Origin: an uncultured Actinomycetota bacterium
GTDB taxonomy: Bacteria > Actinomycetota > Actinomycetes > Streptosporangiales > Streptosporangiaceae
Assembly (NCBI GenBank): GCA_963774905.1
Contig: CAVZHC010000003.1
Coordinates: 142,113-206,112 of the forward strand
Reading direction: 5' to 3'
Length of the DNA stretch: 64,000 nt
In this document: piece by piece, positions 11,331-36,210 of the stretch
How positions within the stretch are numbered: the stretch's first letter is position 1
Layout: every line of letters begins with the position of its first letter
The notes under the pieces: model-generated
Databases searched by the model: none
What the model saw: only the letters and a program-made list of their open reading frames with translations
What the model was told of the DNA's origin: nothing
Translations under genes and position numbers: made by a program

Positions 11331-11532
11331 GTCCCGCGTCGGCTCGGCGGGCGTCGAGCTCGGCATCGCCGGTCTTCTCCGCCAGGCCGCTGGCCGTACG
11401 AGGACAGCTAACCCGCGCCCCGCGCCTGGGCCCAACCGCCTCTGCCACCCATTGACCGGAACAAACCGGGGTTGCCAGAGCGCAAACAGTGTAGAACCGG
11501 CATTTTCTCCCGGCCCGACCGCTGTTCCGCCT

Positions 11533-11636: not shown

Positions 11637-11643
11637 CGCGGGG

Positions 11644-18463: not shown

Positions 18464-20053
18464 TCAGACCGGGGTTACCCCGTGGCGGCGGCGGGAGAAG
18501 GAGCGATCCTTGCCGCTCGCGGCGGCGAAGCGGCGGATCAGGTCGGCGCGCAGGTCCTCGGGCTGGACGATGTCGTCGACGACCAGTTCTCCCGCCAGCC
18601 GCAGAATGTCGATGTCGGCCTCATAAGCCAGCCGGAGCCGTTGTACCTCCTGGTCCTTTTCCTGCGGGTCGGCGATCGCCGCGAGCTTGTTGTAATAGAC
18701 GGCATTGACCGCGGCCTCGGCACCCATGACCGCGATCTTCGCGGTCGGCAGGGCGAGCGTGGCGTCGGGCTCGAAGCCCGGCCCGGCCATCGCGTACAGC
18801 CCGGCTCCGTAGGCCTTGCGCACCACAACGCAGATCTTCGGCACCGTGGCCTCACAGACCGCGCTGATCATCTTGGCCCCGTGCCTGATGATGCCCTGCC
18901 GTTCTACCGCTGTGCCCACCATGAACCCAGGGACGTCGGCAAGGAACAGCAGCGGCACGCTGAACGCGTCGCACAGCTGGATGAACCTGGTGGCCTTGTC
19001 GGCCGAGTCCACAAATAGCACGCCGCCCTTGAACATGGGGTTGTTCGCGACCACGCCGATCACCAGGCCGTCCAGCCGGGCGAAGCCGGTGACCAGCTCC
19101 CTGGCCCAGAGCTCGTGGATCTCGAACAGCGACCCGGCATCCACCAGGCCGCGGACGAACCTGCGCATGTCGAACGCCTGCCGCTCGCTGGCTGGCACCA
19201 GGGCGCGCAGGTCGACCGGCTCGGGACCGGCCGGCTCGGCCAGCGGCGGCGCCGACCGCCAGTTGCCCGGCAGATAGGACAGGTAGCGGCGGACCGCCTC
19301 GATCGCGTCGGCCTCGGTCTTCGCCAGATGGTGGCCGCAGCCGGAGACCGTGCAGTGCATCCGGGCGCCGCCCATCTCCTCAAGCGTGGTCTGCTCGGAG
19401 ACCACCATCTCGACCATCCGCGGGCTGCCCAGGTACATCGAGGCGTTGCCGTCCACCATGGCCACGTAGTCGCAGAACGCCGGGATGTAGGCGCCGCCGG
19501 CCGCCGACGGGCCGAACAGCGCGCACACCTGCGGGATGGAGCCCGAGGCGCGGACCTGGGTGTGGAAGATCTTCCCCGCGCCGCGGCGCCCGGGGAACAT
19601 CTCGACCTGGTCGGTGATCCTGGCCCCGGCCGAGTCCACCAGGTAGATCATCGGCAGGCCAGACGCATACGCCTTCTCGATGATCCTGATGATCTTCTCG
19701 ACCGTCCTGGCGCCCCACGACCCGGCCTTGACGGTGGAGTCGTTGGCCATGAGCGCGACCGGACGGCCGCCGACCGTCGCGGTGCCGGTGATCACGCCGT
19801 CCGCCGGCAGGCCGTCGGCCAGCGCGTTCGCGAAGATCCCGTCCTCGGCGAGGCTGCCAGGATCGATCAGCATCGCGATCCGGTCCCTGGCGAAGAGCTT
19901 GCCGCCGACCGCGGCGGCCTGGTGGTACCTGGGCGCGCCGCCTCCCGCGATCGCGGCCCGCAGCGCGGGCAGGTCGGCGTGCTCGGTGCCGCCGGCGGCG
20001 CTGGCCTGCTGGCCGGGCTGCCGGGCGGTGGCCTCGTTCTGCGCTTCGCTCAC
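18464..20053 (-). CDS. Acyl-CoA carboxylase carboxyltransferase (beta) subunit, methylcrotonyl-CoA carboxylase/AccD1-like
   Basis: GKLFARDRIAMLIDPGS...MANDSTVKAGSWG...VCALFGPSAAGGAYIPAFCD...FLADVPGFMVG. GTG 20053 (VSEAQNEA). Confidence 0.9.
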   Translation of the reverse strand: MSEAQNEATARQPGQQASAAGGTEHADLPALRAAIAGGGAPRYHQAAAVGGKLFARDRIAMLIDPGSLAEDGIFANALADGLPADGVITGTATVGGRPVALMANDSTVKAGSWGARTVEKIIRIIEKAYASGLPMIYLVDSAGARITDQVEMFPGRRGAGKIFHTQVRASGSIPQVCALFGPSAAGGAYIPAFCDYVAMVDGNASMYLGSPRMVEMVVSEQTTLEEMGGARMHCTVSGCGHHLAKTEADAIEAVRRYLSYLPGNWRSAPPLAEPAGPEPVDLRALVPASERQAFDMRRFVRGLVDAGSLFEIHELWARELVTGFARLDGLVIGVVANNPMFKGGVLFVDSADKATRFIQLCDAFSVPLLFLADVPGFMVGTAVERQGIIRHGAKMISAVCEATVPKICVVVRKAYGAGLYAMAGPGFEPDATLALPTAKIAVMGAEAAVNAVYYNKLAAIADPQEKDQEVQRLRLAYEADIDILRLAGELVVDDIVQPEDLRADLIRRFAAASGKDRSFSRRRHGVTPV

Positions 20054-20104
20054 GGTCGAGAGCGTACCGAGGCGGGCATCGGCGGGATGCGGCACAGTAG
20101 TGCC

Positions 20105-20695
20105 ATGTTCGAGACCGATGCCGAGCTCGCCGAGCTCCAGGCCTTGCTCGATACGTCGCTGCCGCGGTCGACCGAGCACCTGCGGTCGATCATCATGCCA
20201 GGGGAGCGGACGCTGACCGCGCGCCAGCTCGCCGCCGTCTGCGCCGGGATGTGCACGATGGCGGTATCCACCGTCACGGCCAAGGGCGAGCCGAGGATCA
20301 GCGCGGTGGACGGGCACCTGCTGCACGGCCGCTGGTACTTCAGCACGTCGCGGACCGCGGCCAAGGCCAGGCACCTGGCCGCACGGCCAGCGGTGAGCCT
20401 GGCCTACATCCGCGGCGAGGAGATCGGCGTCTTCGCGCACGGCACCGCTCAGCAGATGAACCCGCCCGGCGGGCCGGACGACCCTGACTGGCCGGCTCTG
20501 CTGCAGTACATGACCGACTACTACGGCAGCTCGCCGCTGAGCTGGGGCGACGTGGTGTACTACCGGCTGGTGCCGGGCTGGATGGTGGTGTTCGCCTCGC
20601 ACCCCGACCAGCTGATGGCGGGCCTGGCTACGCCGGGACAGTCCTGGTACGCGGCCCGGCCCGCAGCACCTGGGAGGGAAGCTGGCGGCCGATGA
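20105..20695 (+). CDS. Pyridoxamine 5'-phosphate oxidase family (split-barrel flavin/F420-binding) protein
   Basis: TMAVSTVTAKGEPRISAVDGHLLHGRWYFSTSRTAAKARHLAARPAVSLAY. Alternative ATG at 20087. The 3' end overlaps the convergent lyase gene. Confidence 0.7.
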   Translation: MFETDAELAELQALLDTSLPRSTEHLRSIIMPGERTLTARQLAAVCAGMCTMAVSTVTAKGEPRISAVDGHLLHGRWYFSTSRTAAKARHLAARPAVSLAYIRGEEIGVFAHGTAQQMNPPGGPDDPDWPALLQYMTDYYGSSPLSWGDVVYYRLVPGWMVVFASHPDQLMAGLATPGQSWYAARPAAPGREAGGR

Positions 20696-21542
20696 TCCGC
20701 TCGGCGTCGGCGGCCGCGTCGATCATCGCGTCGAGGTCGACGCCGGTGGCGATGCCCATGTCCTGCGCCATGTGCACGAGTTCCTCCGTCGCGATGTTGC
20801 CGGTCGCACCGGGGGCGTACGGGCAGCCGCCGAGCCCGCCGACCGAGGCGTCGAAGTCGGCAACGCCGAGCTCGAGGGCGGCGAGCACGTTCGCCAGCCC
20901 GGTGCCGCGGGTGTTGTGGAAGTGCAGGTTCAGCGGGACGTCAGGGTAGGCCGACCTGAACTCCCCGACCAGCGACCAGACCCGTGTCGGCGTGGCCATG
21001 CCGGTGGTGTCGCCGAACGAGATCGAGTCAGCGCCGTCGGCGACCGCCCGGCCAGCCACCTGGACCACCCGGTCCACCGGGACGTCGCCCTCGTAGGGAC
21101 AGCCCCACGCCGTGGAGACGATCACCTGGCAGGGCACGCCGCGCTCGTGCGCGCGGGCGATGATCGCGGCGATGTCGTCAAGCGACTCCTCGGTAGACCG
21201 CCTGACGTTCTTGCGGTTGTGCGTGTCCGAGGCCGAGACGACGGCCTCGATCTCGGTCAGCCCGGCGTCCAGCGCCCGGCGGGCGCCGCGCAGGTTCGGG
21301 ACCAAGGCGGAGTAGCGCACCGCGTCGGACCGGCGGATGCCCTGCCAGACCTCGTCGGCGTCGGCCATCTGGGGTATCGCCTCGGGCCTGACGAACGACA
21401 CGGCCTCGATCCGGCGCACCCCGGTACCCGACAGCCGGTCGATCAGCTCGATCTTGGCGGCCGTGGGCACCGGGTCCTCGTTCTGCAGCCCGTCGCGCGG
21501 TCCCACCTCGCGCAGCGAGATCCGGCTCGGCAGGTCACTCAC
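20628..21542 (-). CDS. Hydroxymethylglutaryl-CoA lyase
   Basis: ISLREVGPRDGLQNE...FHNTRGTGLANVLAALELGV...GGLGGCPYAPGATGN. GTG 21542 overlaps the hydratase stop by 8 nt. Confidence 0.85.
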   Translation of the reverse strand: MSDLPSRISLREVGPRDGLQNEDPVPTAAKIELIDRLSGTGVRRIEAVSFVRPEAIPQMADADEVWQGIRRSDAVRYSALVPNLRGARRALDAGLTEIEAVVSASDTHNRKNVRRSTEESLDDIAAIIARAHERGVPCQVIVSTAWGCPYEGDVPVDRVVQVAGRAVADGADSISFGDTTGMATPTRVWSLVGEFRSAYPDVPLNLHFHNTRGTGLANVLAALELGVADFDASVGGLGGCPYAPGATGNIATEELVHMAQDMGIATGVDLDAMIDAAADAERIIGRQLPSQVLRAGPRTRTVPA

Positions 21543-22365
21543 TGCCGTCCTCCCCAACGTCGGCCGCGCTCTTTCGGCCGGCGGACGGCCAGACGGGGCG
21601 GCGCTTCTCGGCGAACGCGGCGATGCCCTCGCGACGGTCGGCCGAGGCGGCGGCGGTGCGCCAGGCCGCGTCCTCGACATCCAGGGCGGCGGCCAGCGTC
21701 AGCCCGGCGCCGTTGTGCAGCGCCCGCTTGGCGGCGCGCACCGCGACCGGCGAGTTCGCCGCGATCTGCCGCGCCATGGCCAGCGCCCGCTCAGCCGCCG
21801 CGCCGGGCGGCACAAGCACGTCGACCAGCCCGATCGCGGCCGCCTCGGCCGCGTCGACCTTGCGGCCGGAGAAGATCAGCTCGGCGGCCCGGCCTGGCCC
21901 GATCCGCCGCGCAAGCAGCTGAGTACCGCCGCAGCCGGGGACCAGCCCCACGCTCGCCTCGGGCAGGCCGAGCACCGCGGTCTCGTCCGCCACGATCACG
22001 TCGCAGCTCAGCGCCAGCTCGCAGCCACCGCCGAGAGCGAACCCGTGCACGGCGGCGATGGCGGGCTGCGGCAGCTCAAGCAGCGCGCCGAACGCCGCAC
22101 GGAACGCCGGCCGCTGCGCCATGATCTGTGCGTCGCTCATCGCGGCCCGCTCCTTGAGGTCGGCGCCCGCGCAGAATGCCCGCTCCCCCTGCGCCCGCAG
22201 CAGCACGACCGCGGTCCCCTGGTCGGCGCCGAGCTCGGCGAAGTACCCGGCGAGCTGGTGCAGCGTGGCGGTGTTCAGCGAGTTCATCGCCTCCGGCCGG
22301 TCCAGCACCACCTCGGCGATCCCGCCGGCCTGCCGGCGCATCAAGGCGCAGCCGCTCGCACTCAC
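21535..22365 (-). CDS. Enoyl-CoA hydratase/isomerase family (methylglutaconyl-CoA hydratase-like by context)
   Basis: Crotonase fold motifs: FCAGADLKE, AAVHGFALGGGCELALSCD. Confidence 0.85.
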   Translation of the reverse strand: MSASGCALMRRQAGGIAEVVLDRPEAMNSLNTATLHQLAGYFAELGADQGTAVVLLRAQGERAFCAGADLKERAAMSDAQIMAQRPAFRAAFGALLELPQPAIAAVHGFALGGGCELALSCDVIVADETAVLGLPEASVGLVPGCGGTQLLARRIGPGRAAELIFSGRKVDAAEAAAIGLVDVLVPPGAAAERALAMARQIAANSPVAVRAAKRALHNGAGLTLAAALDVEDAAWRTAAASADRREGIAAFAEKRRPVWPSAGRKSAADVGEDGSE

Positions 22366-23052: not shown

Positions 23053-23892
23053 TCAGCGGACGTGCACCACGTCGCCGGCGCTGACGGGCACCGGCGCGGT
23101 GCCGCCCGCGCCGGGCCTGACCAGCAGCTGGCCGAACTGGTCCATGCCGACCGCCGTCCCGGACAGCTGCGTGCCGCCGGGCAGCTCGACCCTGACCAGG
23201 CGCCCCAGGGTCGCGCTCAGCGCCAGGTACTCCTCGCGCTGCCCGGACGCGTCGGCGTCGCCGCCGGCCTGCAGCCAGCGCCGGTACCGATGCTCGAGCT
23301 GGCGCAGGATCTCCGCGAGCAGGCCGGCCCGGTCAGCGCCAGGCACGCCGCAGGCCTCCAGCGAGGTCGCGGCCGGCGACGGCAGGTCGCCGGCGCGGCC
23401 GGCCACGTTAAGCCCGATGCCGACCACGATCGCGTCCCCGGCCTGTTCGGCGAGTATCCCGGCCAGCTTCCCGTCGCCGACCAGGAGATCGTTGGGCCAC
23501 TTCAGCCGGGCGTCGACCCCGGCCAGCGCGCGGACCGCGGTCACCGCCGCCAGGCCGGCCAGCAGCGGCACCCAACCCCAGGCCGCTCGCGGCACCGGCG
23601 CGGGCCGCAGCAGCACCGAGAACGTCAGCGCCGCCCCCGGCCGACTGTGCCAGGTCCGGCCGAGCCTGCCCCGGCCAGCGATCTGCGCCTCGGCGGCGAC
23701 GACGAGGCCCTCGGCCGCCCCTTGCGCGGCGTAGCCGAGCACGTCGGCGTTGGTCGAGCCGGTCTGCGCGACGACCCGGATGTCGGCCCATAGCCGCCCG
23801 GGCCCGGCGACGGCCGCGGCCAGCGTGGCGGCGCTGAGCGGCGCTAGCGGCGGGGGCAGCGGCGGCGGGCCGGGCGCGGGTCGGCCTTCCAT
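23053..23892 (-). CDS. birA: Biotin--[acetyl-CoA-carboxylase] ligase
   Basis: TGSTNAD...AEAQIAGRGRLGRTWHS...LKWPNDLL...KLAGILAE. ATG 23892 (MEGRPAP). Confidence 0.85.
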   Translation of the reverse strand: MEGRPAPGPPPLPPPLAPLSAATLAAAVAGPGRLWADIRVVAQTGSTNADVLGYAAQGAAEGLVVAAEAQIAGRGRLGRTWHSRPGAALTFSVLLRPAPVPRAAWGWVPLLAGLAAVTAVRALAGVDARLKWPNDLLVGDGKLAGILAEQAGDAIVVGIGLNVAGRAGDLPSPAATSLEACGVPGADRAGLLAEILRQLEHRYRRWLQAGGDADASGQREEYLALSATLGRLVRVELPGGTQLSGTAVGMDQFGQLLVRPGAGGTAPVPVSAGDVVHVR

Positions 23893-24171
23893 CCGCACAT
23901 TGTCCCCCCGGCCGGTGAACCCGGTCCGCCGCGACGCCGTTTCACAAATGATTCCGTCGGCTCCGATGGGCTGATGATGAAACTGACAGATGAACACCGA
24001 GCGACACGTTGGGAAAGCCCGGCCATGACGGCTTGCGCCATGTCGGCGGAACTGCTGGCATAGCGGTACGCTCGTCAATACCAGGGCGGAACGGGTGAAA
24101 GCTCAGGTAAGGGAGAGTCCACCGGTGGCGATCCGGTTCCGGGCGCGGATGCGATCACGGCGGGCCTGCCG

Positions 24172-25068
24172 GTGCCGCAAGTCGACCCGGCCGATCCGGC
24201 CGCCGGGTACCTGGCCGCTCTCGGCACCGCCGAGCCCGCGCAGCTCACCGCCGTGCTGGAGGCCGCGGTGACCGGGCCGCAGGGTACGCCGCAGGCCGTC
24301 GCCGAGTCGACAGAGACATTGCTCGCGCTGACCAGGGCCAGGATCGTCACCGGCGACCTGGCGGGCGCGTGGAGGTCGCTCGACGGCCTGGCCGCGCAGC
24401 AGCCTGACGACTGGCGGGTCACCTGGTACCGGGGGCTGGCCGAGCTGGCGGCGTGGAACCCGGCGGCGGCCCGTTCCTCCTTCGACGCGGTCTGCGACCT
24501 GCTGCCCGGCGAGCCGGCGCCCAAGCTTGCGCTGGCGTTCGCTGCCGAGGCGGCCGGCGACGCCGCGGCGGAAGCACGCTACTTCGGCCTGGTCTGGACG
24601 CTCGACCGGTCGTTCGTCAGCGCGGCGTTCGGGCTGGCCAGGTCGCTGCAGCGGAGCGGTGACCGGGCCGGCGCGGTGGCCGCGCTCGCCTCGGTGCGGC
24701 CGACGTCCAGCTACTTCCTGGCCGGCCAGGTCGCCGCCGTCAGGATCCGGGTGTCGCCGCCGCCCGGCCAGCCCTGCGCCGGCGCGGACGAGCTCGCCGC
24801 GGCCGGGCGGGACCTAGGCAGGATCGCGCTCGAGCCCGCGTCCGCGCAACAGATCACCGCCGAGGTGCTGCGGGCCGCGCTCGACCGGCTGCTCGCGTCG
24901 CAGCCGCTGGACTCCGGCGAGCTGCTTGGCTGCCAGACCACCGAACGGTCACTGCGGTTCGGGCTTGAACGCAGCTACCGCGCCCAGGCCAGGCTCGCAG
25001 CCGAGCGGCTGCGCCGGATCGAGCTCGTCGACGCCGCCAACACCGTCCGCCCGAGTACCTGGTCATGA
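24172..25068 (+). CDS. TPR-like helical-repeat protein resembling the C-terminal half of PknG-type Ser/Thr kinases, with no kinase domain
   Basis: DWRVTWYRGLAELA...LPGEPAPKLALAFAAE...YFGLVWTLDRSFVSAAFGLARS. ATGA overlap with the PP2C gene. The only start is GTG 24172, and the frame is open upstream to the stop at 24061. Confidence 0.6.
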   Translation: MPQVDPADPAAGYLAALGTAEPAQLTAVLEAAVTGPQGTPQAVAESTETLLALTRARIVTGDLAGAWRSLDGLAAQQPDDWRVTWYRGLAELAAWNPAAARSSFDAVCDLLPGEPAPKLALAFAAEAAGDAAAEARYFGLVWTLDRSFVSAAFGLARSLQRSGDRAGAVAALASVRPTSSYFLAGQVAAVRIRVSPPPGQPCAGADELAAAGRDLGRIALEPASAQQITAEVLRAALDRLLASQPLDSGELLGCQTTERSLRFGLERSYRAQARLAAERLRRIELVDAANTVRPSTWS

Positions 25069-26114
25069 CCGCGGACCCGACGGCGGAGTCGTACGCCTGC
25101 CCCTCATGCGGCCAGCCGGTCCGGCCATCGGACAACTTCTGCGAGGCCTGCCGGGCCGAGCTGTCACCCGCGCTGGTCAGCGGCGGCGGGGCGAACCGCG
25201 CGCAGGCGTGCCTGTCCTGCCCGGGAGCCCCGGTGACGCCGGAGGGCTACTGCGAGTCCTGCGGCCGCAAGGTCCCGTCCGGCGCCGACCACTGCGAGCT
25301 CGACCTCGGGGTGCTTGCCGGGGTCACCGACCGCGGCCGGCGCCACTCACGCAACGAGGACGCGATGGCGATCGCGGCGGCGCGGTCCCCGGCCGGGCAG
25401 GCGGCCATCGCCGTGGTGTGCGACGGGGTCTCCACCTCGACCCGCCCCGACGAGGCGGCCCAGGCCGCCGCGAGGGCCGCGGAGCGGGTGCTGCTGGCCG
25501 CGGCCCGGGCCGGCGGCGACCTGGCGGAAGCGTCCAGGCAGGCCTTCGGCGCCGCCCAGCGGGCGCTGCTCGCCATGGCCGACGGCGGCTGGCGGGTCGG
25601 CGCGCCGTCGGCCACCTTCGTCTCCGCAGTGCTGACCGCCGCCGAGGTGACCGTGTGCTGGCTCGGCGACAGCCGCGCCTACTGGCTCGACCCGTCGGGA
25701 GCCGGCACCAGGCAGCTCACCAGCGACGACTCGGTGGCCCAGGCGCTGGTCAGCGAGGGCCTGATGAGCCCGGCCGAGGCGCTGGCCTCCCCGGCTGGCC
25801 ATGTCGTCACCGGCTGGATCGGCGCCGACCTGAGCGAGGCCGAGCCGCATGTGATCGTGTTCGCCCCGGCCGGGCCTGGCGCCGTGCTGCTCTGCTCGGA
25901 CGGGCTGTGGAACTACGCCCAGGCCGCCGGAGACCTCGGGGGCCTGGCTCTGCCCGGCGCGCTGACCGATCCGCTCGGCACGGCCGCCGCGCTTGTCGCG
26001 TTCGCCAACGAGGCGGGCGGCTCCGACAACATCACGGCCGTGCTCGCGCCCTTCCCGCCCGCCGACCGGCGCGCACCCACGGACCAGGGAGAGACCGCCG
26101 ATGAGCCGGCCTGA
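25065..26114 (+). CDS. PP2C-family Ser/Thr phosphatase with N-terminal double zinc ribbon
   Basis: CPSCG...FCEACR and CLSCP...YCESCG, followed by RHSRNEDA, VVCDGVS, LGDSRAY, CSDGLWN, GGSDNITAV. Confidence 0.85.
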   Translation: MTADPTAESYACPSCGQPVRPSDNFCEACRAELSPALVSGGGANRAQACLSCPGAPVTPEGYCESCGRKVPSGADHCELDLGVLAGVTDRGRRHSRNEDAMAIAAARSPAGQAAIAVVCDGVSTSTRPDEAAQAAARAAERVLLAAARAGGDLAEASRQAFGAAQRALLAMADGGWRVGAPSATFVSAVLTAAEVTVCWLGDSRAYWLDPSGAGTRQLTSDDSVAQALVSEGLMSPAEALASPAGHVVTGWIGADLSEAEPHVIVFAPAGPGAVLLCSDGLWNYAQAAGDLGGLALPGALTDPLGTAAALVAFANEAGGSDNITAVLAPFPPADRRAPTDQGETADEPA

Positions 26115-27068
26115 CTTCACCGTCGAGGTGTTCCAGAACGAGTTCCTCCCCGACGGCGGCCGCGAGGTCAACGCGATCGTCACGGTCACGGCGCCGGACT
26201 CTGACGCGGCCGCCGCGACCGCGAGCCAGGGCGGCGGCGCGAGCCGGGCCGAGATCATCATCATCGACTGCTCAGGCTCGACTACCCCCGTGCCAAGATC
26301 GCCCAGGCCAGGGCGGCCACCGCGGCGGCCATCGACGTGATCGGCGACGGCGTCGCGTTCGCCGTGGTCGCCGGCACCGACGTGGCGAGCCCGGCGGCGC
26401 GTGACGCGGCCATGCGGGTGGTGGCCGACCTGCGGCCGGCCGGCGGGACGGCGATGGGATCGTGGCTGCGGCTGGCCGGGCAGATGTTCTCGTTCTGCCC
26501 GGCGGCGCTGCGGCACGCGATCCTGCTCACCGACGGCAGGAACGAGCACGAGTCGCCGCAGGAGCTCACCGAGGCGCTGCGGGTGTGCGAGGGCGCGTTC
26601 AGCTGCGACTGCCGCGGCGTGGGCACTGACTGGGAGGTCGCCGAGCTGCGCCGGATCTCCACGGCCCTGCTCGGCAGCGTGGACATCGTGGCCGACCCGA
26701 GCGGCCTCGCGGCCGATTTCGAGTCCATGATGCAGACCGCGATGGGCAAGCAGGTCGCCGACGTGGCGCTGCGGGTGTGGACGCCGCAGCGCGCGGATCT
26801 GAAGTTCGTCAAGCAGGTCGCGCCGACCGTGGACGACCTGACTGCGCGGCGGGCGCAGTCGGGGCCGCAGGCCGGCGACTACCCGACCGGCGCGTGGGGC
26901 GGCGGGGAGAGCCGCGACTACCACGTCTGCGTGCAGATGACCCCGGCCGGGGTGGGCCAGGAGATGCTCGCCGCCAGGGTCAGCCTGGTGGCCGGATCGG
27001 AGGTGCTTGGCCAGGGCATGGTCAGCGCGGTGTGGACCGACGACGAGGCGCTGACGACCAGGATACGA
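26101..27068 (+). pseudogene. vWA (TerY-like) domain protein, reading frame broken right after the MIDAS DCSGS motif and lacking a natural C-terminus
   Basis: Frame A gives MSRPDFTVEVFQNEFLPDGGREVNAIV...IIIIDCSGS. Homology resumes in another frame as (D)YPRAKIAQARAATAAAIDVIGDGVAFAVVAG...GGTAMGSW...ILLTDGRNE. After ...WTDDEALTT the ORF reads the FHA gene out of frame until 27314. Confidence 0.65.
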
Positions 27069-27078
27069 CATCTGCGGC

Positions 27079-27795
27079 ATGCGGATCGGCGGCGCGCCGA
27101 CCGCTACCAGCGCGGCGTCGGCCGCTGGCGGCGGGGAGCCTGCTGCTGGCAGCGGGGAGCCGGCCGCGCCGAGCGGGGAGCCGTGCCCGCGGTGCGGCAC
27201 CGGCCGGAGCGGCCAGTTCTGCGAGGTGTGCGGCTTCGACTTCGAGGCCGGCCGCCCGGCACAGACGGCCCAGCCCGCAGAGCCTGCCCAGCCCGCACAG
27301 CCTGCCCAGCCTGACCCATCCGCGCAGCCTGCCCAGACAAACCCATCCGCGCAGCCTGACCTGCACGCGCAGACCGGTCAGCCCGCACGGACCTGGACCG
27401 CGGTGATCACGGCCGACCGTGGCCACTTCGACAGCGTGCTCGCGGCCGACGGCCCGGACTCTGCCTCGCTGCGGTTCCCTGCGTACTGTCCGGAGCGGCG
27501 GTTCGCGCTGACCGGCCCGCAGATGCGGATCGGCAGGCGCAGCGCCTCCCGCGGCCTGGAGCCCGAGATCGACCTCACCGGCCCGCCGGTCGACCCCGGC
27601 ATCTCGCACCTGCACGCCGTACTGATCGCGCAGGCCGACGGCACCTGGTCCGTGCTCGACCCCGGCTCGTCCAACGGCACCCAGGTCAACGGTGCCGACA
27701 TCGCCTGCGGTGTCCCTGTGCCGCTGCGCGCCGGGGACCGGGTCTGCCTGGGCGCGTGGACCGTACTCACGGTCGAGCGGGGCCAGCCCGGATGA
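27079..27795 (+). CDS. FHA-domain protein with N-terminal zinc ribbon and Pro/Gln/Ala-rich linker
   Basis: [17 protein letters not shown]. The FHA core is [17 protein letters not shown]...ISHLHAVL...[16 protein letters not shown]. The N-terminus is possibly truncated (see findings). Confidence 0.75.
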
Positions 27796-27868
27796 CGCCC
27801 CCTGGCTGACACCGGCCGTCGCGCCCCGACGAGCCGCCGCCCTGGCCTGCTGCCCTACCCTGTGCGGC

Positions 27869-29542
27869 ATGGCCATGCACGCGCAGCAGCCCCACGACAC
27901 CGCAGCCCACGACACCGCGGCCGACGCCGCCGCGACTGGCGACCCGGCCGCCCCGATCGACATGCACACCACCGCAGGCAAGCTCGCCGACCTGGAGCAG
28001 CGCAGGCACGAGGCCGCCCATGCCGGCTCGGCTCGCGCCGTCGAGCGGCAGCACGACAAGGGCAAGATGACCGCGCGTGAACGGATCGACAAGCTGCTCG
28101 ACCCGGGCTCGTTCATCGAGTTCGACGAGCTGGCCAGGCACCGCGCGCACGACTTCGGGATCGCAGCAGAACGCCCGTACGGCGACGGCGTCGTGACCGG
28201 GTTCGGCACCATCGACGGGCGGCCGGTGTGCGTGTTCAGCCAGGACTTCACCATCTTCGGCGGGTCGCTAGGCGAGGTCTTCGGCACCAAGATCGTCAAG
28301 GTGATGGACCACGCGCTGAAGGTCGGCTGCCCGGTGATCGGGATCAACGACAGCGGCGGCGCCAGGATCCAGGAGGGCGTGGTCGCGCTCGGCCTGTACG
28401 CCGAGATCTTCTTCCGCAACGTGATGGCCTCCGGTGTGATCCCGCAGATCTCGCTGATCATGGGGCCGTGCGCGGGCGGCGCGGTCTACTCCCCCGCCAT
28501 CACCGACTTCACCTTGATGGTGGACCAGACCTCGCACATGTTCATCACGGGGCCTGACGTGATCAAGACCGTGACCGGCGAGGAGGTCACGTTCGAGGAG
28601 CTCGGCGGGGCGCTTGCGCACAACTCCAAGTCCGGCGTGGCCCACTACCAGGCGGCCGACGAGGAGGACTGCCTGGACTTCGCCCGCGTGCTGCTGTCCT
28701 ACCTGCCGTCGAACAACCTGGAGGAGCCGCCGGTCTTCCCGACCGGACTGGACCCGGGGCAGGTGCTCGAGCTGACCGAGGAGGACGCCGAGCTTGACGC
28801 GCTCATCCCCGACTCGGCGAACCACCCCTACGACATGCACGTCGCCATCGAGCACGTGCTCGACGACGGCGAGTTCTGCGAGATCCACGCCGCCTTCGCG
28901 CAGAACATCATCTGCGGCTTCGGCCGGGTGGACGGCACGCCGGTCGGCGTGGTGGCCAATCAGCCCATGCACTTCGCCGGCTGCCTGGACATCGACGCGT
29001 CGGAGAAGGCGGCCAGGTTCGTCCGCACCTGCGACGCGTTCAGCATCCCGGTGCTCACGTTCGTTGACGTGCCAGGGTTCCTGCCGGGCACCGACCAGGA
29101 GTGGGGCGGCATCATCAGGCGCGGCGCCAAGCTGATCTACGCCTACGCCGAGGCGACGGTACCGAAGATCACGGTGATCACCAGGAAGGCCTACGGCGGC
29201 GCCTACGACGTCATGGGCTCCAAGCACCTGGGCGGCGACATCAACCTGGCCTGGCCGACCGCGCAGATCGCGGTGATGGGCGCCCAGGGCGCGGTCAACA
29301 TCTTGTACCGGCGCGAACTTGCCGCCGCGGCCACACCGCAGGAGCAGGCGGCCGTGCGCGAGGCCAGGGCCAGCGAGTACGAGGACACACTCGCCAACCC
29401 CTACGCCGCGGCAGAACGCGGCTACGTGGACGCCGTGATCAGGCCCGCCGAGACGCGGCGGGAGGTGATCAGGGCGCTGCGCGCGCTGCGGACCAAGCGC
29501 CAGACGCTGCCGGCCAAGAAGCACGGCAACATCCCGCTCTAG
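27869..29542 (+). CDS. accD5: Propionyl/acetyl-CoA carboxylase carboxyltransferase beta subunit
   Basis: [18 protein letters not shown]...[13 protein letters not shown]...[12 protein letters not shown]...[13 protein letters not shown]...[10 protein letters not shown]. Divergent neighbourhood with birA matches the mycobacterial arrangement. Confidence 0.9.
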
Positions 29543-29701: not shown

Positions 29702-30733
29702 ATGACTGATTCCGAAGCCGCTCTCCCGCTGCTGTCCCGGTACGCGATCATGGTCGACGTCGGGTACATCTACGCATCCGCCGGCGAGCTCCTGTTCAGC
29801 GCCTCCTCCCGGCGCGAGTACCGGGTCGACGCCGACAAGCTCATCGCGGCGCTGATCAAGCACGCGGACGACCAGGTCAGGGGCCAGCTGCTGCGGGTCT
29901 ACTGGTACGACGCCGCCAGGGACCGGGTGCCCACGTTCGACCAGCGGGTCATCGCGCAGATGCCGCTGGTCAAGCTGCGCCTGGGCAACCTGAACGCGCG
30001 CGGCCAGCAGAAGGGCGTGGACGCGCAGATCAGGGCCGACATGGAGGCCCTGGCCAGGCACCGGGCGATCACCGACGCGGTCCTCGTGGCCGGCGATGAG
30101 GACATGGTCCCCGCCGTGGAGGCCGCTCAGGCGTTCGGCGTCCGGGTGCACCTGTGGGGCGTGGAACCGCCGTACGGGACGAACCAGGCCGAGCGCCTGG
30201 TCTGGGAGTCCGACACGGTCGAGGTGATCGAGCGGACCTTCCTCGAGCCTTACTTCGCGCCGCAGCCGACGGCCGAGTCCGCCCCGTCGGCCGCGCCGAG
30301 CCCGATCCCGGCCAGGGCTGACCAGTCGGCGGCGGCCCACGGGGCCGCGGCCAGCCAGATGGCCGCGCCGTCGCCTGCGCAGCTGTTCGGCGAACGCAAC
30401 CCGTTCCGCTCGCACGCCAAGGTGAACTCCGTGCACCTCAGCGCCACGCACCTGGCGGTCTCCAGGCTCGGCCCGTCCAGAGAGCGGGTCGAGGAGGCCG
30501 GCGAGCACGTGGCGCAGAAGTGGATACTCACCCGCGGCGAGGACAACATCCGCGACCTGCTGCCAGGGCCGATCCTGCCCCCGGTGATCGACAAGGAGCT
30601 GCTTGTCGACGCCGAGAAGGAGCTCGGCCTCTCGCTGCGCTCCTACCAGGAGGCCAGGGAGTGGCTGCGGGACGCGTTCTGGTCACGAGTGCACCGCCAG
30701 TTCGGCGTCGGCGTCGGCAAGTCCAAGGGCTGA
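29702..30733 (+). CDS. NYN-domain (LabA/DUF88-like, PIN-fold putative RNase) protein with a ~150-aa C-terminal extension
   Basis: AIMVDVGYIY...QQKGVDAQIRADM...VLVAGDEDMVPAVEAAQAFGVRVHLWG matches the NYN acidic-residue pattern. Confidence 0.75.
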   Translation: MTDSEAALPLLSRYAIMVDVGYIYASAGELLFSASSRREYRVDADKLIAALIKHADDQVRGQLLRVYWYDAARDRVPTFDQRVIAQMPLVKLRLGNLNARGQQKGVDAQIRADMEALARHRAITDAVLVAGDEDMVPAVEAAQAFGVRVHLWGVEPPYGTNQAERLVWESDTVEVIERTFLEPYFAPQPTAESAPSAAPSPIPARADQSAAAHGAAASQMAAPSPAQLFGERNPFRSHAKVNSVHLSATHLAVSRLGPSRERVEEAGEHVAQKWILTRGEDNIRDLLPGPILPPVIDKELLVDAEKELGLSLRSYQEAREWLRDAFWSRVHRQFGVGVGKSKG

Positions 30734-30760: not shown

Positions 30761-31075
30761 ATGCCGAACGACATCCCACCCCGCACTGCCGCCACCCCAG
30801 CCGGTCCCGCCATCCCGGGCTCAGGGGCGGCCGAGTCCGCCACGCAGGCCCGGCCCGCGCCGTTCCTCACCGTGGTGCGCGGCCGGCCGACCGCCGCCGA
30901 GGTCGCCGCGCTGGTCTCCGTGCTGACCGCGCGCGCCGCCGCGGGTGCGGCACTGGCCGGCCAGCCTGGGCCGGCGGGTGCGAGCCGTTCTGCCTGGTCG
31001 GACAGGTCCAGGCTGCTGCGGCAGAGCATTTCGCCAGGGCCAGGCGCCTGGCGGCGCAGCTCGCTGCCTCGCTAG
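30761..31075 (+). CDS. accE5: Acyl-CoA carboxylase epsilon subunit
   Basis: FLTVVRGRPTAAEVAALVSVLTARAAA...SAWSDRS...PGPGAWRRSSLPR is typical of the small ACC epsilon family. Lies between the beta and alpha subunit genes. Confidence 0.7.
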   Translation: MPNDIPPRTAATPAGPAIPGSGAAESATQARPAPFLTVVRGRPTAAEVAALVSVLTARAAAGAALAGQPGPAGASRSAWSDRSRLLRQSISPGPGAWRRSSLPR

Positions 31076-31183
31076 CCAGCGCCACGGGCGCCGACCGGCC
31101 GCGGGCCGGCCGTTCCCTGCCGTGTGGTCTGACCGGCCGGACGGGCACTCACTAGACTCCTGGCAGTCGCGAAGGAGCATTTA

Positions 31184-33016
31184 GTGCGCAAGGTCCTCAT
31201 CGCCAACCGGGGCGAGATCGCCGTCCGGGTCGCCCGCGCCTGCCGGGACGCGGGGCTGGCCAGCGTTGCCGTGTACTCCGAGCCCGACCTTAACGCACTG
31301 CACGTCACCGTGTCCGACGAGGCCTACGCGCTCGGCGGCACGTCGGCGGCCGAGAGTTACCTGGACATCGCCAAGATCCTCAAGGCCGCGGCCGACTCCG
31401 GCGCCGATGCCGTGCACCCCGGGTACGGATTCCTCGCCGAGAACGCGCACTTCGCCAGGGAGGTCATCGCCGCCGGGCTGACCTGGATCGGGCCGCCGCC
31501 CGCCGCGATCGACGCGCTCGGCGACAAGACCGCCGCGCGGGTGATCGCGCGCAGCGTCGGGGCGCCGCTGGCTCCCGGGACCCAGGGGGCCGTGGCCGGG
31601 CCGGCCGAGGCGGCCGCGTTCGCCCGCGAGTACGGGCTGCCGATCGCGATCAAGGCCGCCTACGGCGGCGGCGGGCGCGGGCTCAAGGTCGCCCGCACGG
31701 CGGAGGAGATCGGCGAGCAGTTCGAGTCGGCGGTCCGCGAGGCGGTGGCGGCGTTCGGCCGCGGCGAGTGCTTCGTCGAGCGCTACCTTGACCGGCCGCG
31801 GCACGTGGAGACCCAGTGCCTGGCCGACACCCACGGCAACATCGTGGTGGTCTCCACCAGGGACTGCTCGCTGCAGCGTCGCCACCAGAAGCTGGTCGAG
31901 GAGGCGCCGGCGCCGTTCCTGACCGCCGGGCAGGAGCGGCTGCTGCGCGACTCGTCCAAGGCGATCCTGCGCGAGGCCGGCTACACCGGCGCCGGGACCT
32001 GCGAGTTCCTTGTCGGCCAGGACGGCTCCGTGTCGTTCCTCGAGGTGAACACCAGGCTGCAGGTGGAGCACCCGGTGAGCGAGGAGGTCAGCGGCATCGA
32101 CCTGGTGCTCGAGATGTTCAAGATCGCCGACGGGCAGGCGCTCACCTTCGACGACCCTGACCTGCGCGGGCATTCGATCGAGTTCCGCATCAATGCCGAG
32201 GACCCCGGCCGCGGGTTCCTTCCCGCGCCAGGCACGCTGGCCGTCTGGCGGCCGCCGTCCGGGCCAGGGGTGCGGCTGGACGCGGGGTACGACCTGGGCA
32301 TGACCGTGCCGCAGAGCTACGACTCGCTGATCGGCAAGCTGGTCGTGACCGGGGCCGACCGGCCGCAGGCGCTGGCCAGGTCCAGGCGCGCGCTGGCCGA
32401 GTTCGAGATCGGCGGGATGCCCACGGTGCTGCCGTTCCATCGTGCGGTGGTGCGCGATCCCGCGTTCACCGGCGAGCCGTTCTCCGTGCACACCAGCTGG
32501 ATCGAGACCGAGTTCGTCAACACGCTGCCGCCGTACGACCTCGAACTGGCCGCCAACCTGTCCGCCGACGGCTCGCCGCCTGAGCGGGAGCGGATCGTCG
32601 TCGAGGTGGACGGCAAGCGGCTCGAGGTCGTGGTGCCCGCCGTGATCGGCGGCGGGACTGGGTTCGGTGCCGGGGCGGGGGCTGGGTTCGGTGCCTGGGC
32701 CGGCGGCGGGGCACGGGCGGGCGCTGGGGTCCGGGCAGGGCGACCCGGGCGGCGGGCCGGGCGCGGGCCTGGCGGTGGCGGCAAGTCACAGGCCGCCGAC
32801 GGCGACGCGCTGACCAGCCCGATGCAGGGCACGATCGTCAAGCTGCTCGCCGCCGAGGGCCAGCGGGTCACGGCCGGCGAGACCGTCGTGGTGCTCGAGG
32901 CCATGAAGATGGAGCAGCCGCTCACCGCGCACAAGGACGGCGCCGTCGCCGACCTGACCGTCGCGATCGGGCAGACCGTCACGGCCGGGCAGGTCATCTG
33001 CCGCATCGCGGACTGA
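31184..33016 (+). CDS. accA3: Acetyl/propionyl-CoA carboxylase alpha subunit (biotin carboxylase plus BCCP domain)
   Basis: [19 protein letters not shown]... ATP-grasp, and a biotinyl-lysine motif EAMKMEQ near the C-terminus. GTG start preceded by AAGGAG. Confidence 0.9.
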
Positions 33017-33027
33017 CGGGCCGACCA

Positions 33028-33384
33028 GTGGCCCGGATAACTGGCGACCCAGGACCGGTCCGGTGGATGGCGTTCGCCCTGGGCTTCCGTCTGCCCGAGG
33101 AGAACGCCGACTGGGTGCGGCACGAGCTCACCGACGCGGGCTGGCGGCTGCGGACCGTGATCAGGCACCTGGCGATCATCGGCCCGATCTGCATCATCGT
33201 CGCCGTACTGCTGCTGACGCTGTCACCCGCGCCGGTCTGGCTGGCCGGCATGATGGTCGGCCTGATCCTCGCAGGCAGCGTCTTCACCGTCGCCGCCTAC
33301 GGCGACGACCTCCGCGCCTCCCGCCTGCGCCAGCACGGCCTCGAAGTCCCCGACGACCCCGACCTAGGCCACCCCGCCCACTGA
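33028..33384 (+). CDS. Small two-TM membrane protein (DUF5313-like, from memory)
   Basis: WVRHELTDAGWRLRTVIRHL followed by two hydrophobic helices. High GC3. Confidence 0.5.
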   Translation: MARITGDPGPVRWMAFALGFRLPEENADWVRHELTDAGWRLRTVIRHLAIIGPICIIVAVLLLTLSPAPVWLAGMMVGLILAGSVFTVAAYGDDLRASRLRQHGLEVPDDPDLGHPAH

Positions 33385-33425
33385 CCCGGCCGGCAGCCGC
33401 ACCCGGGCCGCCCTGAACCCGGCTG

Positions 33426-34865
33426 CTAGATCGCGTCGGCGGGCTTCATGAGCTGGCGGGCGGCCTCGGTGACGCTGCCGGACAGGGACGGGTAGACGGC
33501 GAAGGTGTGGGCGATCTGGTCGACGGTCAGCTGCTGCTCGACCGCCAGCGAGACACCGAGGATCAGCTCGCTGGCGCGCGGTGCCACGATCACGCCGCCG
33601 AGCACGATACCGGTATTGCGCCTGGTGAACAGCTTGACGAACCCGTCGCCGAAGCCGTCCATCTTGGCCCGCGCATTGGTGGCGAGCGGCAGCTTGACCA
33701 CGCGCGCGCCGACCGCTCCGCTGTCCACGTCGGCCTGGGTGACGCCTACCGTGGCGATCTCCGGCTCGGTGAAGATGGTGGCTGCCACGTGGCGGAGCCG
33801 CAGCGGGGCGACGGCCTCGCCGAGCGCGTGCCACATCGCGATCCTGCCCTGCATGGCGGCGACCGAGGCGAGCATCCACACGCCGGTGCAGTCGCCTGCC
33901 GCATAGACGCCGGGCGCCGAGGTACGCGACACCTTGTCGACCGTGATGTAGCCGCGTTCGCCCAGGTCCACGCCGGACTCGGCCAGCCCGATCCCGTCGG
34001 TGGACGGGACCATTCCGACGGTCAGCAGGCAGTGCGACCCGCGCACGGTCCTGCCGTCGGCCAGCATCACCTCGACGCCGCCTGCGGTGCGCTTGGCCGA
34101 GACGGCGCGCGACCGGCCGAGCACCGACATGCCGCGGCGGCGGAATACGTCCTCCACGACCATCGCCGCGTCGGTGTCCTCGTTGGGCAGCACGTGCTGG
34201 CGGGAGGAGACCAGCGTGACCTGTGACCCGAGCGCCTGGTAGGCACTGGCGAACTCGGCACCGGTGACGCCGGACCCCACGATGATCAGCTCGCCGGGGA
34301 TCTCGGCCAGGTCGTAGAGCTGCCGGCAGGTCAGCAGCCGCTCGCCGTCGGGGACGGCGTCGGCCAGCACCCTGGGGTGCGCGCCGGCCGCCACGAGGAC
34401 AGTTTCCGCCCTGATCTCGCGGCTGCCGACGGCGACCGTGCCTGGGCCGGCCAGCCGCCCGCGCCCGGTGACGACCTCGACGCCCTCGGCCTCGAGCCGC
34501 GCGGCGACGTCGGCGGACTGCGCGTGAGCGAGGTCGCGGATGCGGGCGTAGACCAGCGGGGCGTCGGCGCGGGCGTGCCCGTGCAGCGCGGAGAACGAGC
34601 GGGCCGGCCCTGGCTCATGACGCTGGCGCTCCGCGCCAGCGTCATGAGCGAACCTGATGCCGAGGTCCCCCGACCCCTCCATCGCCGCCATCAGGCTGGA
34701 CGTGGCGATCAGCGTCTTGGACGGGACGCAGTCGGTCAGCACGCAGGATCCGCCGAGCCCGCTGTCCTCGACGACGGTCACCTCGGCGCCGAGCTGCGCG
34801 GCGACCAGGGCCGCCTCGTAACCGCCCGGGCCGCCGCCGATGATCGCAACACGCGGCTGGCTCAC
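33426..34865 (-). CDS. lpdA: Pyridine nucleotide-disulfide oxidoreductase, LpdA-type NAD(P)H quinone dehydrogenase
   Basis: VAIIGGGPGGYEAALVAAQLGAEVTVVE...GGSCVLTDCVPSK. Second NAD fold IVGSGVTGAEFA. Synteny with the GGCT-like and M20 amidohydrolase genes. Confidence 0.75.
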   Translation of the reverse strand: MSQPRVAIIGGGPGGYEAALVAAQLGAEVTVVEDSGLGGSCVLTDCVPSKTLIATSSLMAAMEGSGDLGIRFAHDAGAERQRHEPGPARSFSALHGHARADAPLVYARIRDLAHAQSADVAARLEAEGVEVVTGRGRLAGPGTVAVGSREIRAETVLVAAGAHPRVLADAVPDGERLLTCRQLYDLAEIPGELIIVGSGVTGAEFASAYQALGSQVTLVSSRQHVLPNEDTDAAMVVEDVFRRRGMSVLGRSRAVSAKRTAGGVEVMLADGRTVRGSHCLLTVGMVPSTDGIGLAESGVDLGERGYITVDKVSRTSAPGVYAAGDCTGVWMLASVAAMQGRIAMWHALGEAVAPLRLRHVAATIFTEPEIATVGVTQADVDSGAVGARVVKLPLATNARAKMDGFGDGFVKLFTRRNTGIVLGGVIVAPRASELILGVSLAVEQQLTVDQIAHTFAVYPSLSGSVTEAARQLMKPADAI

Positions 34866-34977
34866 GCTGCCCCATTGTGTCGCATCGGGCCGCCGGGCCG
34901 ACCGCCAGCCTCGGCCAGCCGGCCAGCCTACCGAACCTGTTCACTCCTGCCTCCCCAGACTCGTACGCTAATCAACT

Positions 34978-35430
34978 GTGGCGTTGTACGCGGCTTACGG
35001 CAGCAACATGGACCCGGCGCAGATGGCCGAGCGCTGCCCGCACTCACCCCAGGCAGGCACCGGCTGGCTGCACGACTGGCGGCTCACGTTCGGCGGCGAG
35101 TACATCGGCTGGGAAGGCGCCCTGGCCACCGTGGTCGAGGAGTCGTCGGCCAGGGTGTTCGTAGTGCTCTACGAGGTCTCCGACTCCGACGAGCAGGCGC
35201 TCGACCGGTGGGACGGCGCGACCCTCGGCTACTACAGCAAGCTGAAGGTCAGGGTCACTACGGCCGACGGCGACGCGCTGGCCTGGCTGTATGTGCTCAA
35301 CGACTACGAGGGCGGCCTGCCGTCAGCACGCTACCTGGGCATCATGGCCGACGCCGCCGAGGCCGCCGGGGCGCCCGATGAGTACGTGGCCGGCCTGCGG
35401 ACCAGGCCGTGCACCTCGATGGGCGCCTGA
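34978..35430 (+). CDS. Gamma-glutamylcyclotransferase (AIG2/GGACT-like) family protein
   Basis: LYAAYGSNMDPAQMAERCP is a characteristic N-terminus (YGSNM). Confidence 0.75.
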   Translation: MALYAAYGSNMDPAQMAERCPHSPQAGTGWLHDWRLTFGGEYIGWEGALATVVEESSARVFVVLYEVSDSDEQALDRWDGATLGYYSKLKVRVTTADGDALAWLYVLNDYEGGLPSARYLGIMADAAEAAGAPDEYVAGLRTRPCTSMGA

Positions 35431-35454
35431 CCGGCCACCCAGGCGCGGGCCGGG

Positions 35455-36210
35455 TCACCTGAGGATCGCGGTGAGCACAAAACCGATCGCTGGCAGCAGC
35501 ACGGTCGCGACGGGGAGCCAGGCCCAGGTCGACCTCATCACCGCTGCTGGCACCGCGGCCGCCGGGCCGGCGCCGTTGGCGCTCGCGGCTGCGCGGGCGG
35601 CGCCCGTCTTGCCGCCACTGCCCGACCTGGCCTGGTCAGACAGCCCGGCAAGCTCCCTGGCGATCACCTCGGCCGGAAGTATCTTGGCCATTTCCTTGCC
35701 CTGCCCCGGCAGCCGGTCGTAGCCGGATGGCCGGCTCCGCGTGCCCTGGGCCCACTGCCGTGCCCGAAGCTGCTGCCTGGCCCTGGCCCTGCGTGGCGCC
35801 GACAGCGCCCAGCTGAACACGGTCTTGTCTTTCTTATCCGCCCCGCGTGCGCACCGGACCTCGACCGAGTCGGCCAGGAAGATCCCCTTGACCGCGTCCC
35901 ACGGGATGTCGAACTTGCGGAACGGGTTGAGCACGGTGATCCCGTCGTCGTCGGCGATCACCCTGGGCCACAGCGTGCAGGCGAAAACCACGCCGGTCAC
36001 TGTCAGCGCGGCGAAGGCGAACTGCAGCGAGACGAACTCGTGGCCCTGAATGACCAGGTCGCCCGCGCAGAGCACGAGCAGCCCGATCCAGCTCCACCAG
36101 ATGACCCGCGGCATCGTCAAGCGATAGACCCGCCGACCGTCGGCGGTCAGCTTGCCCGCCGAGCCTGATCCGGTGACCGGCGGCCTGGCGCGCTCGTTCG
36201 GTAGGGACAC
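35455..36210 (-). CDS. Membrane protein with bacterial PH-like domain
   Basis: Two N-terminal TM helices, then GITVLNPFRKFDIPWDAVKGIFLADSVEVRC, and a C-terminal TM. Confidence 0.55.
   Translation of the reverse strand: MSLPNERARPPVTGSGSAGKLTADGRRVYRLTMPRVIWWSWIGLLVLCAGDLVIQGHEFVSLQFAFAALTVTGVVFACTLWPRVIADDDGITVLNPFRKFDIPWDAVKGIFLADSVEVRCARGADKKDKTVFSWALSAPRRARARQQLRARQWAQGTRSRPSGYDRLPGQGKEMAKILPAEVIARELAGLSDQARSGSGGKTGAARAAASANGAGPAAAVPAAVMRSTWAWLPVATVLLPAIGFVLTAILR

Follow-up and report, generated by a model that had tools for sequence, protein, structure and literature searches.

Can a phosphorylation cassette without a kinase be a signalling system in its own right, or is it what remains of a larger one? 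The question is raised by a locus in a 64,000-nucleotide stretch of DNA (the window) from an uncultured Actinomycetota bacterium of the Streptosporangiaceae (assembly GCA_963774905.1, contig CAVZHC010000003.1, positions 142,113 to 206,112). On the forward strand of the window, at positions 24061-27795, four co-directional reading frames lie with birA on one side and an accD5-like gene on the other, as an earlier note made from the letters alone had described. They encode, in order, a tetratricopeptide-repeat (TPR) domain, a PP2C phosphatase, a vWA protein (named for the type A domain of von Willebrand factor) and an FHA protein, and to the note they were either an accessory module in decay or a variant that had been little characterised. 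Comparison with related genomes favours the first of these options. The two nearest relatives with this slot, here called L001 and L004, hold an intact seven-gene operon between birA and accD5, and the window cassette is very probably a non-functional 3' remnant of such a PknG-type Ser/Thr-kinase signalling operon, whether it is transcribed or silent. We read it as an ordinary cluster of pseudogenes in decay and not as a new signalling system that does without a kinase.

An intact version with a full-length kinase, which the earlier note had thought possible, thus does exist in the same slot of L001 and L004, as seven genes and not as a four-gene insertion. The case that the note named as refuting its view, relatives with an identical set of four intact genes at this place, is not what was seen; they have more genes, with intact frames, which points to decay in the window. 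Three of the four window genes are damaged: those for the TPR and FHA proteins are truncated at the 5' end, and the vWA gene has three lesions. The note had found frame lesions in two of the four, and these lesions are real, the count having been too low.

Four deletions in the cassette

The domains reported earlier, namely a vWA, a PP2C with a double zinc ribbon and an FHA domain, were recovered by Pfam profile search (Table 1); these E-values, together with 62-79% protein identity to syntenic relatives, exclude chance. G+C content is ~72-78% across the cassette region. All four lesions were mapped on the DNA; each is a deletion, and none is a homopolymer slip.

Table 1. Features of the locus, in window coordinates
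Feature	Position	Strand	Evidence
birA (biotin-protein ligase), left flank	23053..23892	-	BPL_LplA_LipB E 2e-17, BPL_C E 8e-7 (Pfam)
Operon leader/putative promoter region kept from the ancestor	24030..24124	+	Aligns with DNA upstream of pstS in L001 (5376-5560) and L004 (3700-3900)
pstS-like start and nonsense frame	24125..24271	+	GTG 24125, ~6 native codons (V-A-I-R-F-R), then out of frame to the stop
Deletion junction 1	24143..24150	.	pstS codon ~7 fused to the pknG-like catalytic-domain/TPR linker (DNA alignments, tblastn)
pknG-like remnant: end of linker and whole TPR domain	24143..25068	+	ORF (open reading frame) 24172-25068; PF16918 PknG_TPR E 1e-78, profile positions 47-340 of 340
PP2C phosphatase with N-terminal double zinc ribbon	25065..26114	+	PP2C_2 E 1e-7, DZR E 5e-7 (Pfam)
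vWA pseudogene (4FX5-type VWA_3)	26101..27064	+	Three lesions; tblastn, protein and DNA alignments
Deletion junction vWA/FHA	27064..27065	.	vWA '...ALTTRI' fused to FHA codon ~15 ('D-I-C-G-M')
FHA gene without its first ~15 codons	27065..27795	+	PF00498 E 3e-11; ORF 27079-27795
accD5-like acyl-CoA carboxylase beta subunit, right flank	~27869..29542	+	Carboxyl_trans E 1e-201
NYN-domain gene, 3' of the accD5-like gene	29702-30733

The largest deletion (lesion 1) lies at the 5' end of the cassette, where the start of the ancestral operon has survived. By blastn, window 24058-24167 is 71% identical to L001 5404-5513 (E 3e-13), and the conserved blocks in the leader alignment of the window, L001 and L004 include GCGGTACGCT and AAGGAG. 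The leader is a putative promoter region of the ancestral operon. A Shine-Dalgarno-like AGGGAGAG at 24110-24117 stands ahead of GTG 24125, and GTGGCGATCCGGTTCCG lines up in the DNA alignment with the opening codons of PstS in both relatives (L001, VAFRYR; L004, VALRF). Translation from this GTG yields a 48-residue nonsense peptide that crosses kinase-linker and TPR DNA in a frame (ORF 24095-24271) offset by 2 nt from that of the TPR. An ambiguous zone at ~24133-24148 resembles both partners of the junction. Compared with L004 ~5.2 kb is lost, and compared with L001 ~5.1 kb; we put the loss overall at about 5-8 kb, with the three extra ABC-type genes of L001 also gone if the ancestor had them.

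Downstream of this junction the kinase is represented by its TPR half only, as the earlier note had read it. Residues 501-822 of the L004 PknG-like protein align to window 24085-25062 with 69% identity (tblastn), so that the homology begins 5' of the first possible start codon, and the coding signal given by G+C content at third codon positions (GC3) likewise begins at 24151, ahead of the first TPR start codon at 24172. This earliest start is an internal GTG without a Shine-Dalgarno sequence. No Pkinase or rubredoxin match was found in the cassette, either with Pfam or by tblastn with the L001 and L004 proteins, and the latter search found no trace in the window of PstS, GlnX, the ~400-residue protein of the operon or the N-terminal two-thirds of the kinase. 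The best homologue of the TPR remnant (P0001) lies at a contig end and is therefore uninformative on the kinase; its vWA neighbour is intact. Matches to the TPR protein reach at most 71% identity and are mostly fragments on short contigs; the long contigs were the informative ones.

The PP2C gene is the only whole gene of the cassette. It is collinear with 11 aligned homologues and keeps the metal-binding and catalytic motifs of PPM phosphatases, for which R-x-x-N-E-D, D-G-x-S/G, D-G-L-W and G-x-x-D-N-I/V-T were taken as the set: the window protein reads RNEDA, CDGVS, GDSRAYW, CSDGLWNY and GGSDNIT. Its ATG overlaps the stop codon of the TPR frame (ATGA, 25065-25068) and its 3' end overlaps the vWA gene by 14 nt (26101-26114), both as claimed earlier. 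The window PP2C is probably poorly made, because its start relies on ATGA translational coupling to a TPR remnant that has no start of its own. An assignment of this protein to the NCBIfam equivalog Stp1_PP2C_phos was rejected, since the match (E 2.5e-30, 106 bits) is below the 230-bit cut-off, and an exact-match look-up of the protein returned no record.

The vWA gene opens with ATG 26101 and runs in a single frame to ~26279, after which the coding continues in another frame, where VWA_3 matches the ORF at 26337-27314 (E 3e-7). By tblastn, frame 1 covers residues 1-64 of the intact protein and frame 3 covers residues 65-341, and residues 342-435 are absent. Three deletions account for this pattern. 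In lesion 2, seen in the DNA alignment with L004 and L001, 4 nt (GATG) are gone at 26279/26280, which removes the Met after the DCSGS metal-ion-dependent adhesion site (MIDAS) motif and shifts the frame. Lesion 3 is an in-frame loss of 39 nt at ~26382/26383, and with it a conserved strand of 13 residues (ARxVYPxxGxL) has gone. Lesion 4, aligned against L004 12080-12520 and L001 13590-14020, removes ~347 bp at 27064/27065 and takes with it the C-terminal ~95 residues of the vWA protein (VWA_3_C), the intergenic spacer and FHA codons 1 to ~15. The segments missing from the window vWA are present in all 14 aligned homologues, which come from five phyla. Over residues 1-341 the window copy is 71-78% identical to its intact relatives, and nowhere does it hold a complete vWA fold, MIDAS and VWA_3_C in one frame.

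What the FHA gene has lost with these codons is the CPxGH half of its first zinc ribbon; the 11 aligned FHA homologues all begin M..CPxGHxSxxxD(F/Y)CxxCG. ATG 27079, a conserved Met that is internal in the relatives, opens a 238-residue frame that still includes the FHA domain, the second zinc ribbon and a linker rich in Pro and Gln, and has no Shine-Dalgarno sequence. Residues 17-67 and 244-370 of the L001 FHA protein align to the window (tblastn). The residues of the FHA fold are kept in the alignment (RIGRRS, GISHLH and SSNGT), including the conserved Arg, Ser-x-x-His and Asn-Gly. The linker, rich in Ala, Gln and Pro, is encoded by a 9-nt periodic repeat at window 27259-27388, and its length is highly variable among homologues.

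The direction of change is loss and not gain, because homology to the kinase linker precedes the TPR start codon, the start of pstS survives at 24110-24142, and the vWA and FHA genes lack segments that are conserved elsewhere. In this lineage the operon was put out of action by four separate deletions. The 5-8 kb deletion took the sensor genes and the catalytic domain of the kinase; as a result the only good ribosome-binding site feeds a 48-codon nonsense frame and the TPR remnant is left without a start. The vWA gene has the 4-nt frameshift and the 39-nt deletion inside the domain, and the ~347-bp deletion removed the C-terminal domain of the vWA protein together with the 5' end of the FHA gene. 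The lesions, their direction and their recurrence in a second assembly are seen in the data, whereas we infer that both expression and function of the cassette have been lost. In itself the window locus matters little: it is a textbook example of an accessory signalling operon decaying stepwise by deletion, and its genes should be annotated as pseudogenes and not as a new architecture.

The ancestral operon and its kin

In L001 and L004 the order of the seven genes is pstS-like, glnX-family, a gene for a ~400-residue protein without assigned family, pknG-like, PP2C, vWA and FHA (L001 5472-15043; L004 3800-13439). The flanks shared by the window with both loci are birA, accD5 and the NYN gene; bPH_2 is shared with L001 only, and there are extra genes after birA. 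L004 is a Streptosporangiaceae metagenome-assembled genome (MAG) and, judged by identity of the PP2C (68%), the closest relative. Its operon begins with genes for a binding protein of the PstS type (331 bits with TIGR00975, for a cut-off of 205) and for a membrane protein of the GlnX signal-transduction family (317 bits with NF058618, for a cut-off of 250). Next come a 405-residue protein with no family match and a kinase of 823 residues in which PknG_rubred, Pkinase and PknG_TPR are all present. The last three products are a double-zinc-ribbon PP2C, a vWA protein that has both VWA_3 and VWA_3_C, and an FHA protein. The kinase matches Mycobacterium tuberculosis PknG (2PZI) with E 4e-169. The vWA protein matches the structural-genomics entry 4FX5 of the PDB ('von Willebrand factor type A', with VWA_3 and VWA_3_C) over its full length with E 1e-146; relative to that structure the window vWA lacks the Met after DxSxS, a continuous frame, the 13-residue strand and VWA_3_C.

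Among 40 loci retrieved with the PP2C protein, 35 have kinase-TPR, PP2C and vWA genes together, in this order in all but one (L039), with the FHA gene next in most. They come from Kribbella, Propionibacteriaceae, Sediminihabitans, Acidimicrobiia, Terriglobia, a Stigonema MAG and an Acetobacteraceae MAG. Around this conserved core there are two sensor variants, a PstS-type in Streptosporangiaceae-like MAGs and a GlnH-type in Kribbella, Propionibacteriaceae and Acidimicrobiia. The upstream part in Kribbella comprises TelA, an AAA ATPase, a GlnX-family protein, a GlnH-like SBP_bac_3 protein and a 371-residue protein of no assigned family. One such GlnH-type operon (L029, 911-13053) has the rubredoxin, kinase and TPR domains all present and a GlnX-family protein scoring 342 bits with NF058618.

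Two observations on these relatives stand on their own. A protein of ~370-405 residues is conserved directly 5' of the PknG-like kinase (L004 6319-7536; L029 6505-7620); it had no Pfam, NCBIfam or PDB sequence match, and homologues are detectable in the Terriglobia, Stigonema and Bryobacterales loci. At a different kind of locus (L008 1481-10813) an apparently intact pair of a 669-residue FHA protein and a 275-residue PP2C (59% identical to the window PP2C) occurs without kinase or vWA, adjoining gltB/gltD and ahead of polA. This is a different kinase-less arrangement and possibly a functional one.

The nearest described system is the glnX-glnH-pknG operon of Mycobacterium and Corynebacterium. 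There, GlnH binds Asp and Glu, GlnX is functionally linked to the kinase, a path of the signal from GlnH through GlnX to PknG has been proposed, and PknG phosphorylates the FHA proteins GarA and OdhI (PMC6069109, PMC9769921, PMC8546545). The relatives of the window share with it a rubredoxin-kinase-TPR kinase, a GlnX-family four-helix transducer and a solute-binding protein; the window retains PknG_TPR, and its FHA protein would be the expected phospho-reader, like GarA and OdhI. They differ from it in that the binding protein of the closest relatives is of the PstS (phosphate) type and not an Asp/Glu-binding GlnH, and in that they add the ~400-residue protein and, downstream, a PP2C, a vWA and a zinc-ribbon FHA protein. 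The window itself has neither the PknG architecture nor GlnX nor a solute-binding protein, and hence no working member of such a pathway.

By analogy with the GlnH/GlnX/PknG pathway, in the ancestral operon the PstS-type protein would sense an extracytoplasmic ligand, the kinase would phosphorylate threonines to be read by the FHA protein of the operon, the PP2C would reset the switch, and the vWA protein would act as a metal-dependent adaptor. In the literature searched, neither the extended PknG operon nor the variant with PstS was found to be described. This intact operon, which is widespread, occurring in Actinomycetota and appearing also in Terriglobia and a cyanobacterium, is a more interesting lead than the window locus, and the existence of a version with PstS suggests that the ligands sensed by PknG-like kinases may include anions, for instance phosphate, besides amino acids.

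The earlier note had matched the domain set to a different system, the TerY-P triad of Ter stress and conflict systems. As PMC11090510 outlines it, summarising Anantharaman et al. 2012, this triad consists of a TerY-like vWA, a PP2C and a kinase that ends in a zinc ribbon or, in the defence version, in an OB fold, and a defence function reported by Gao et al. 2020 is cited there. We consider it unlikely that the cassette is or was such a triad rather than part of a PknG-type nutrient-sensing operon. The likeness is one of content, as far as that account goes: vWA, PP2C and, in the relatives, a Ser/Thr kinase stand in one operon, with a predicted phosphorylation switch and a metal-binding vWA. 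In Kribbella and Propionibacteriaceae loci, among them L029 (911-4207) and L010, the genes just 5' of glnX are for TelA (PF05816, toxic anion resistance, E 2e-92) and for an AAA ATPase resembling SpoVK/EccA, an adjacency which hints at a link of the Propionibacteriales versions to Ter-type stress neighbourhoods. An operon with a vWA, a Ser/Thr kinase, an FHA protein and a PP2C, presented as a kinase/phosphatase antagonism module, is also described for Deinococcus radiodurans (DRA0331-DRA0334; bioRxiv 10.64898/2026.01.23.701218); compared with it by that description only, the operon studied here differs in gene order and in the type of kinase.

Against the triad stands the kinase, which in the relatives is PknG by architecture and by closest structure and has a PknG TPR at its C terminus where the triad has a zinc ribbon or OB fold; in this family it is the PP2C and FHA proteins that carry zinc ribbons. 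As in the PknG pathway, a solute-binding protein and a transducer of the GlnX family are encoded in the operon. Of the features of the triad the window has a PP2C in an operon, and the kinase with its zinc ribbon or OB fold is absent; the vWA is of the VWA_3/VWA_3_C (4FX5) type and may or may not be TerY-like. PADLOC, run on the window and on the intact L001 proteins with a library that we take to include TerY-P models, gave no match to vWA, PP2C or FHA except a weak one of PDC-M21C to the window PP2C (E 8.6e-05), and so lends no backing to any catalogued defence system. The surroundings are housekeeping genes, with no mobile-element or restriction genes near the locus. The proposed match to the triad is not supported.

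A sister contig and the probable age of the decay

An exact match of the NYN protein led us to a second copy of the locus, contig_15564 of ENA assembly ERZ25039507 (1.27 Mb; here L044), an independent contig from another sample that is collinear with window 19698-40730. Leaving aside a poorly matching stretch at 31-35.5 kb, the two differ by 6 substitutions and 2 indel events in 16.5 kb. L044 has no gaps relative to the window in 23800-27900 except two in the PP2C gene, and therefore has the same four deletions. Its TPR remnant has one Gly-to-Arg change, and its PP2C gene lacks 3 nt (25511-25513) and 1 nt (25704) and is called as two pieces of 231 and 116 residues. At both sites the window has the ancestral state when compared with homologues, and the indels may represent either further decay or consensus errors. 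The two contigs thus offer a natural series, both kinase-minus and vWA-minus with L044 also PP2C-minus, that could help to date and order the gene loss.

Several points weigh against the view that the whole cassette is dead. The stretch of L044 at 31-35.5 kb matches badly, so that its PP2C indels could be consensus errors. With 4 of the 8 difference events, the cassette has more than its share of the length compared (22.6%) would predict, but only marginally so by a binomial test (p = 0.08), and this is suggestive only. The TPR, PP2C and FHA frames remain open; since stop codons arise slowly in a genome of 75% G+C, these open frames are weak evidence either way. Tajima relative-rate tests of the window against L004, with L001 as outgroup, gave no significant acceleration on the window branch in the cassette genes: the changes on the window and L004 branches were 27 vs 18 for the TPR, 32 vs 31 for PP2C, 32 vs 24 for vWA and 11 vs 8 for FHA, compared with 25 vs 29 and 14 vs 17 for the accD5 and NYN flanks. 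Synonymous divergence is saturated at the 62-78% identity that separates the window from L004 and L001. With no significant rate excess, most of the window branch must have been under constraint, and the inactivation would be a recent event when measured against the split from L004; the alternative is that constraint persists on some parts.

The second of these options would be met by a working reduced module, in which the TPR protein (from GTG 24172), the PP2C and the shortened FHA protein (from ATG 27079) cooperate, another Ser/Thr kinase acts in trans and the vWA gene is the sole casualty. We give this little credence. Three frames are indeed open and evolve without significant acceleration, the catalytic motifs of the PP2C and the phosphothreonine-binding residues of the FHA domain are intact, the operon leader is kept, a Ser/Thr kinase gene lies elsewhere in the window (~3236-6100), and the FHA-PP2C pair of L008 appears intact without kinase or vWA. 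The sole good ribosome-binding site, however, leads to the out-of-frame 48-codon ORF, and GTG 24172 and ATG 27079 both lie within the coding sequences for the ancestral proteins and lack Shine-Dalgarno sequences. The start of the PP2C is tied to coupling with the TPR frame, its gene is frameshifted in L044, and an architecture of this kind occurs in no other locus among the 43 examined.

A more specific proposal, and one with a slimmer chance still, is that a free TPR protein made from the internal GTG acts as scaffold or decoy to a GlnX/PknG system whose genes lie elsewhere, with the PP2C and the short FHA protein reused alongside other kinases. The TPR of PknG is needed in vivo, since truncation mutants without it fail to complement, and it has been proposed as a scaffold that contacts GlnX (PMC8546545, PMC6069109). 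These data give no support to an independent role of a lone TPR domain. A working kinase-less module, if real, would be a natural example of a deletion that rewires a signalling operon.

Least probable is that the lesions are assembly or sequencing artefacts in genes that are truly intact: related metagenome contigs (L002 and L003) are full of the frame breaks typical of long-read consensus errors, but the lesions here measure 4 nt, 39 nt, ~347 bp and several kb and are not homopolymer slips, the remainder of the window is frame-clean, and the independent contig from another sample has them all. In the GC3 frame scan of the whole window, the other genes appear as single coding segments after a start codon; coding signal ahead of the first start codon, beyond edge effects, was seen only for the TPR and vWA pieces, with one other possible split gene at 10519-11643. 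We retain the reading of the cassette as the remnant of a PknG-type operon.

Flanking genes and further observations

The flanks identify the slot. The window birA, divergent from the cassette, is 53% identical to BirA of L001 over 23056-23802, and on the right AccD5 and the NYN protein are 87% and 88% identical to their L001 counterparts (all by tblastn). The start codons of birA (ATG 23892) and of the accD5-like gene (ATG 27869) were picked by us. An Rfam scan of the whole window and a consensus promoter and terminator scan of 23700-28000 found nothing; the cassette leader is no known riboswitch, and the sigma-70 consensus is uninformative in G+C-rich DNA of this kind. No mobile-element ends or long direct repeats were found at the junctions within 23700-28000, where the sole find was the 9-nt periodic repeat of the FHA gene.

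The poorly matching segment at window 31000-35500 has 185 mismatches and 69 gap positions relative to L044. The genes in it, for biotin carboxylase, lipoyl and pyridine-nucleotide-oxidoreductase proteins, are broken into pieces in the L044 gene calls, and the segment may be strain-variable or recombined or may reflect poor polishing in L044.

At window 10519-11643, on the minus strand, the coding signal changes frame, from 10927-11397 to 10632-10859, as it might in a split gene or in two short overlapping genes. On the plus strand at 3236-6100, a long ORF carries a Ser/Thr kinase domain (~3275-3883) with 27% identity to the PknG-like catalytic domain (E 1e-17); this is the sole other kinase-like match in the 64-kb window and is unrelated to the cassette. 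Upstream of birA, at 18467-22365 on the minus strand, a second carboxyltransferase paralogue (38% identical to AccD5) adjoins HMGL-like and enoyl-CoA hydratase genes, a cluster that probably serves leucine catabolism (methylcrotonyl-CoA carboxylase).

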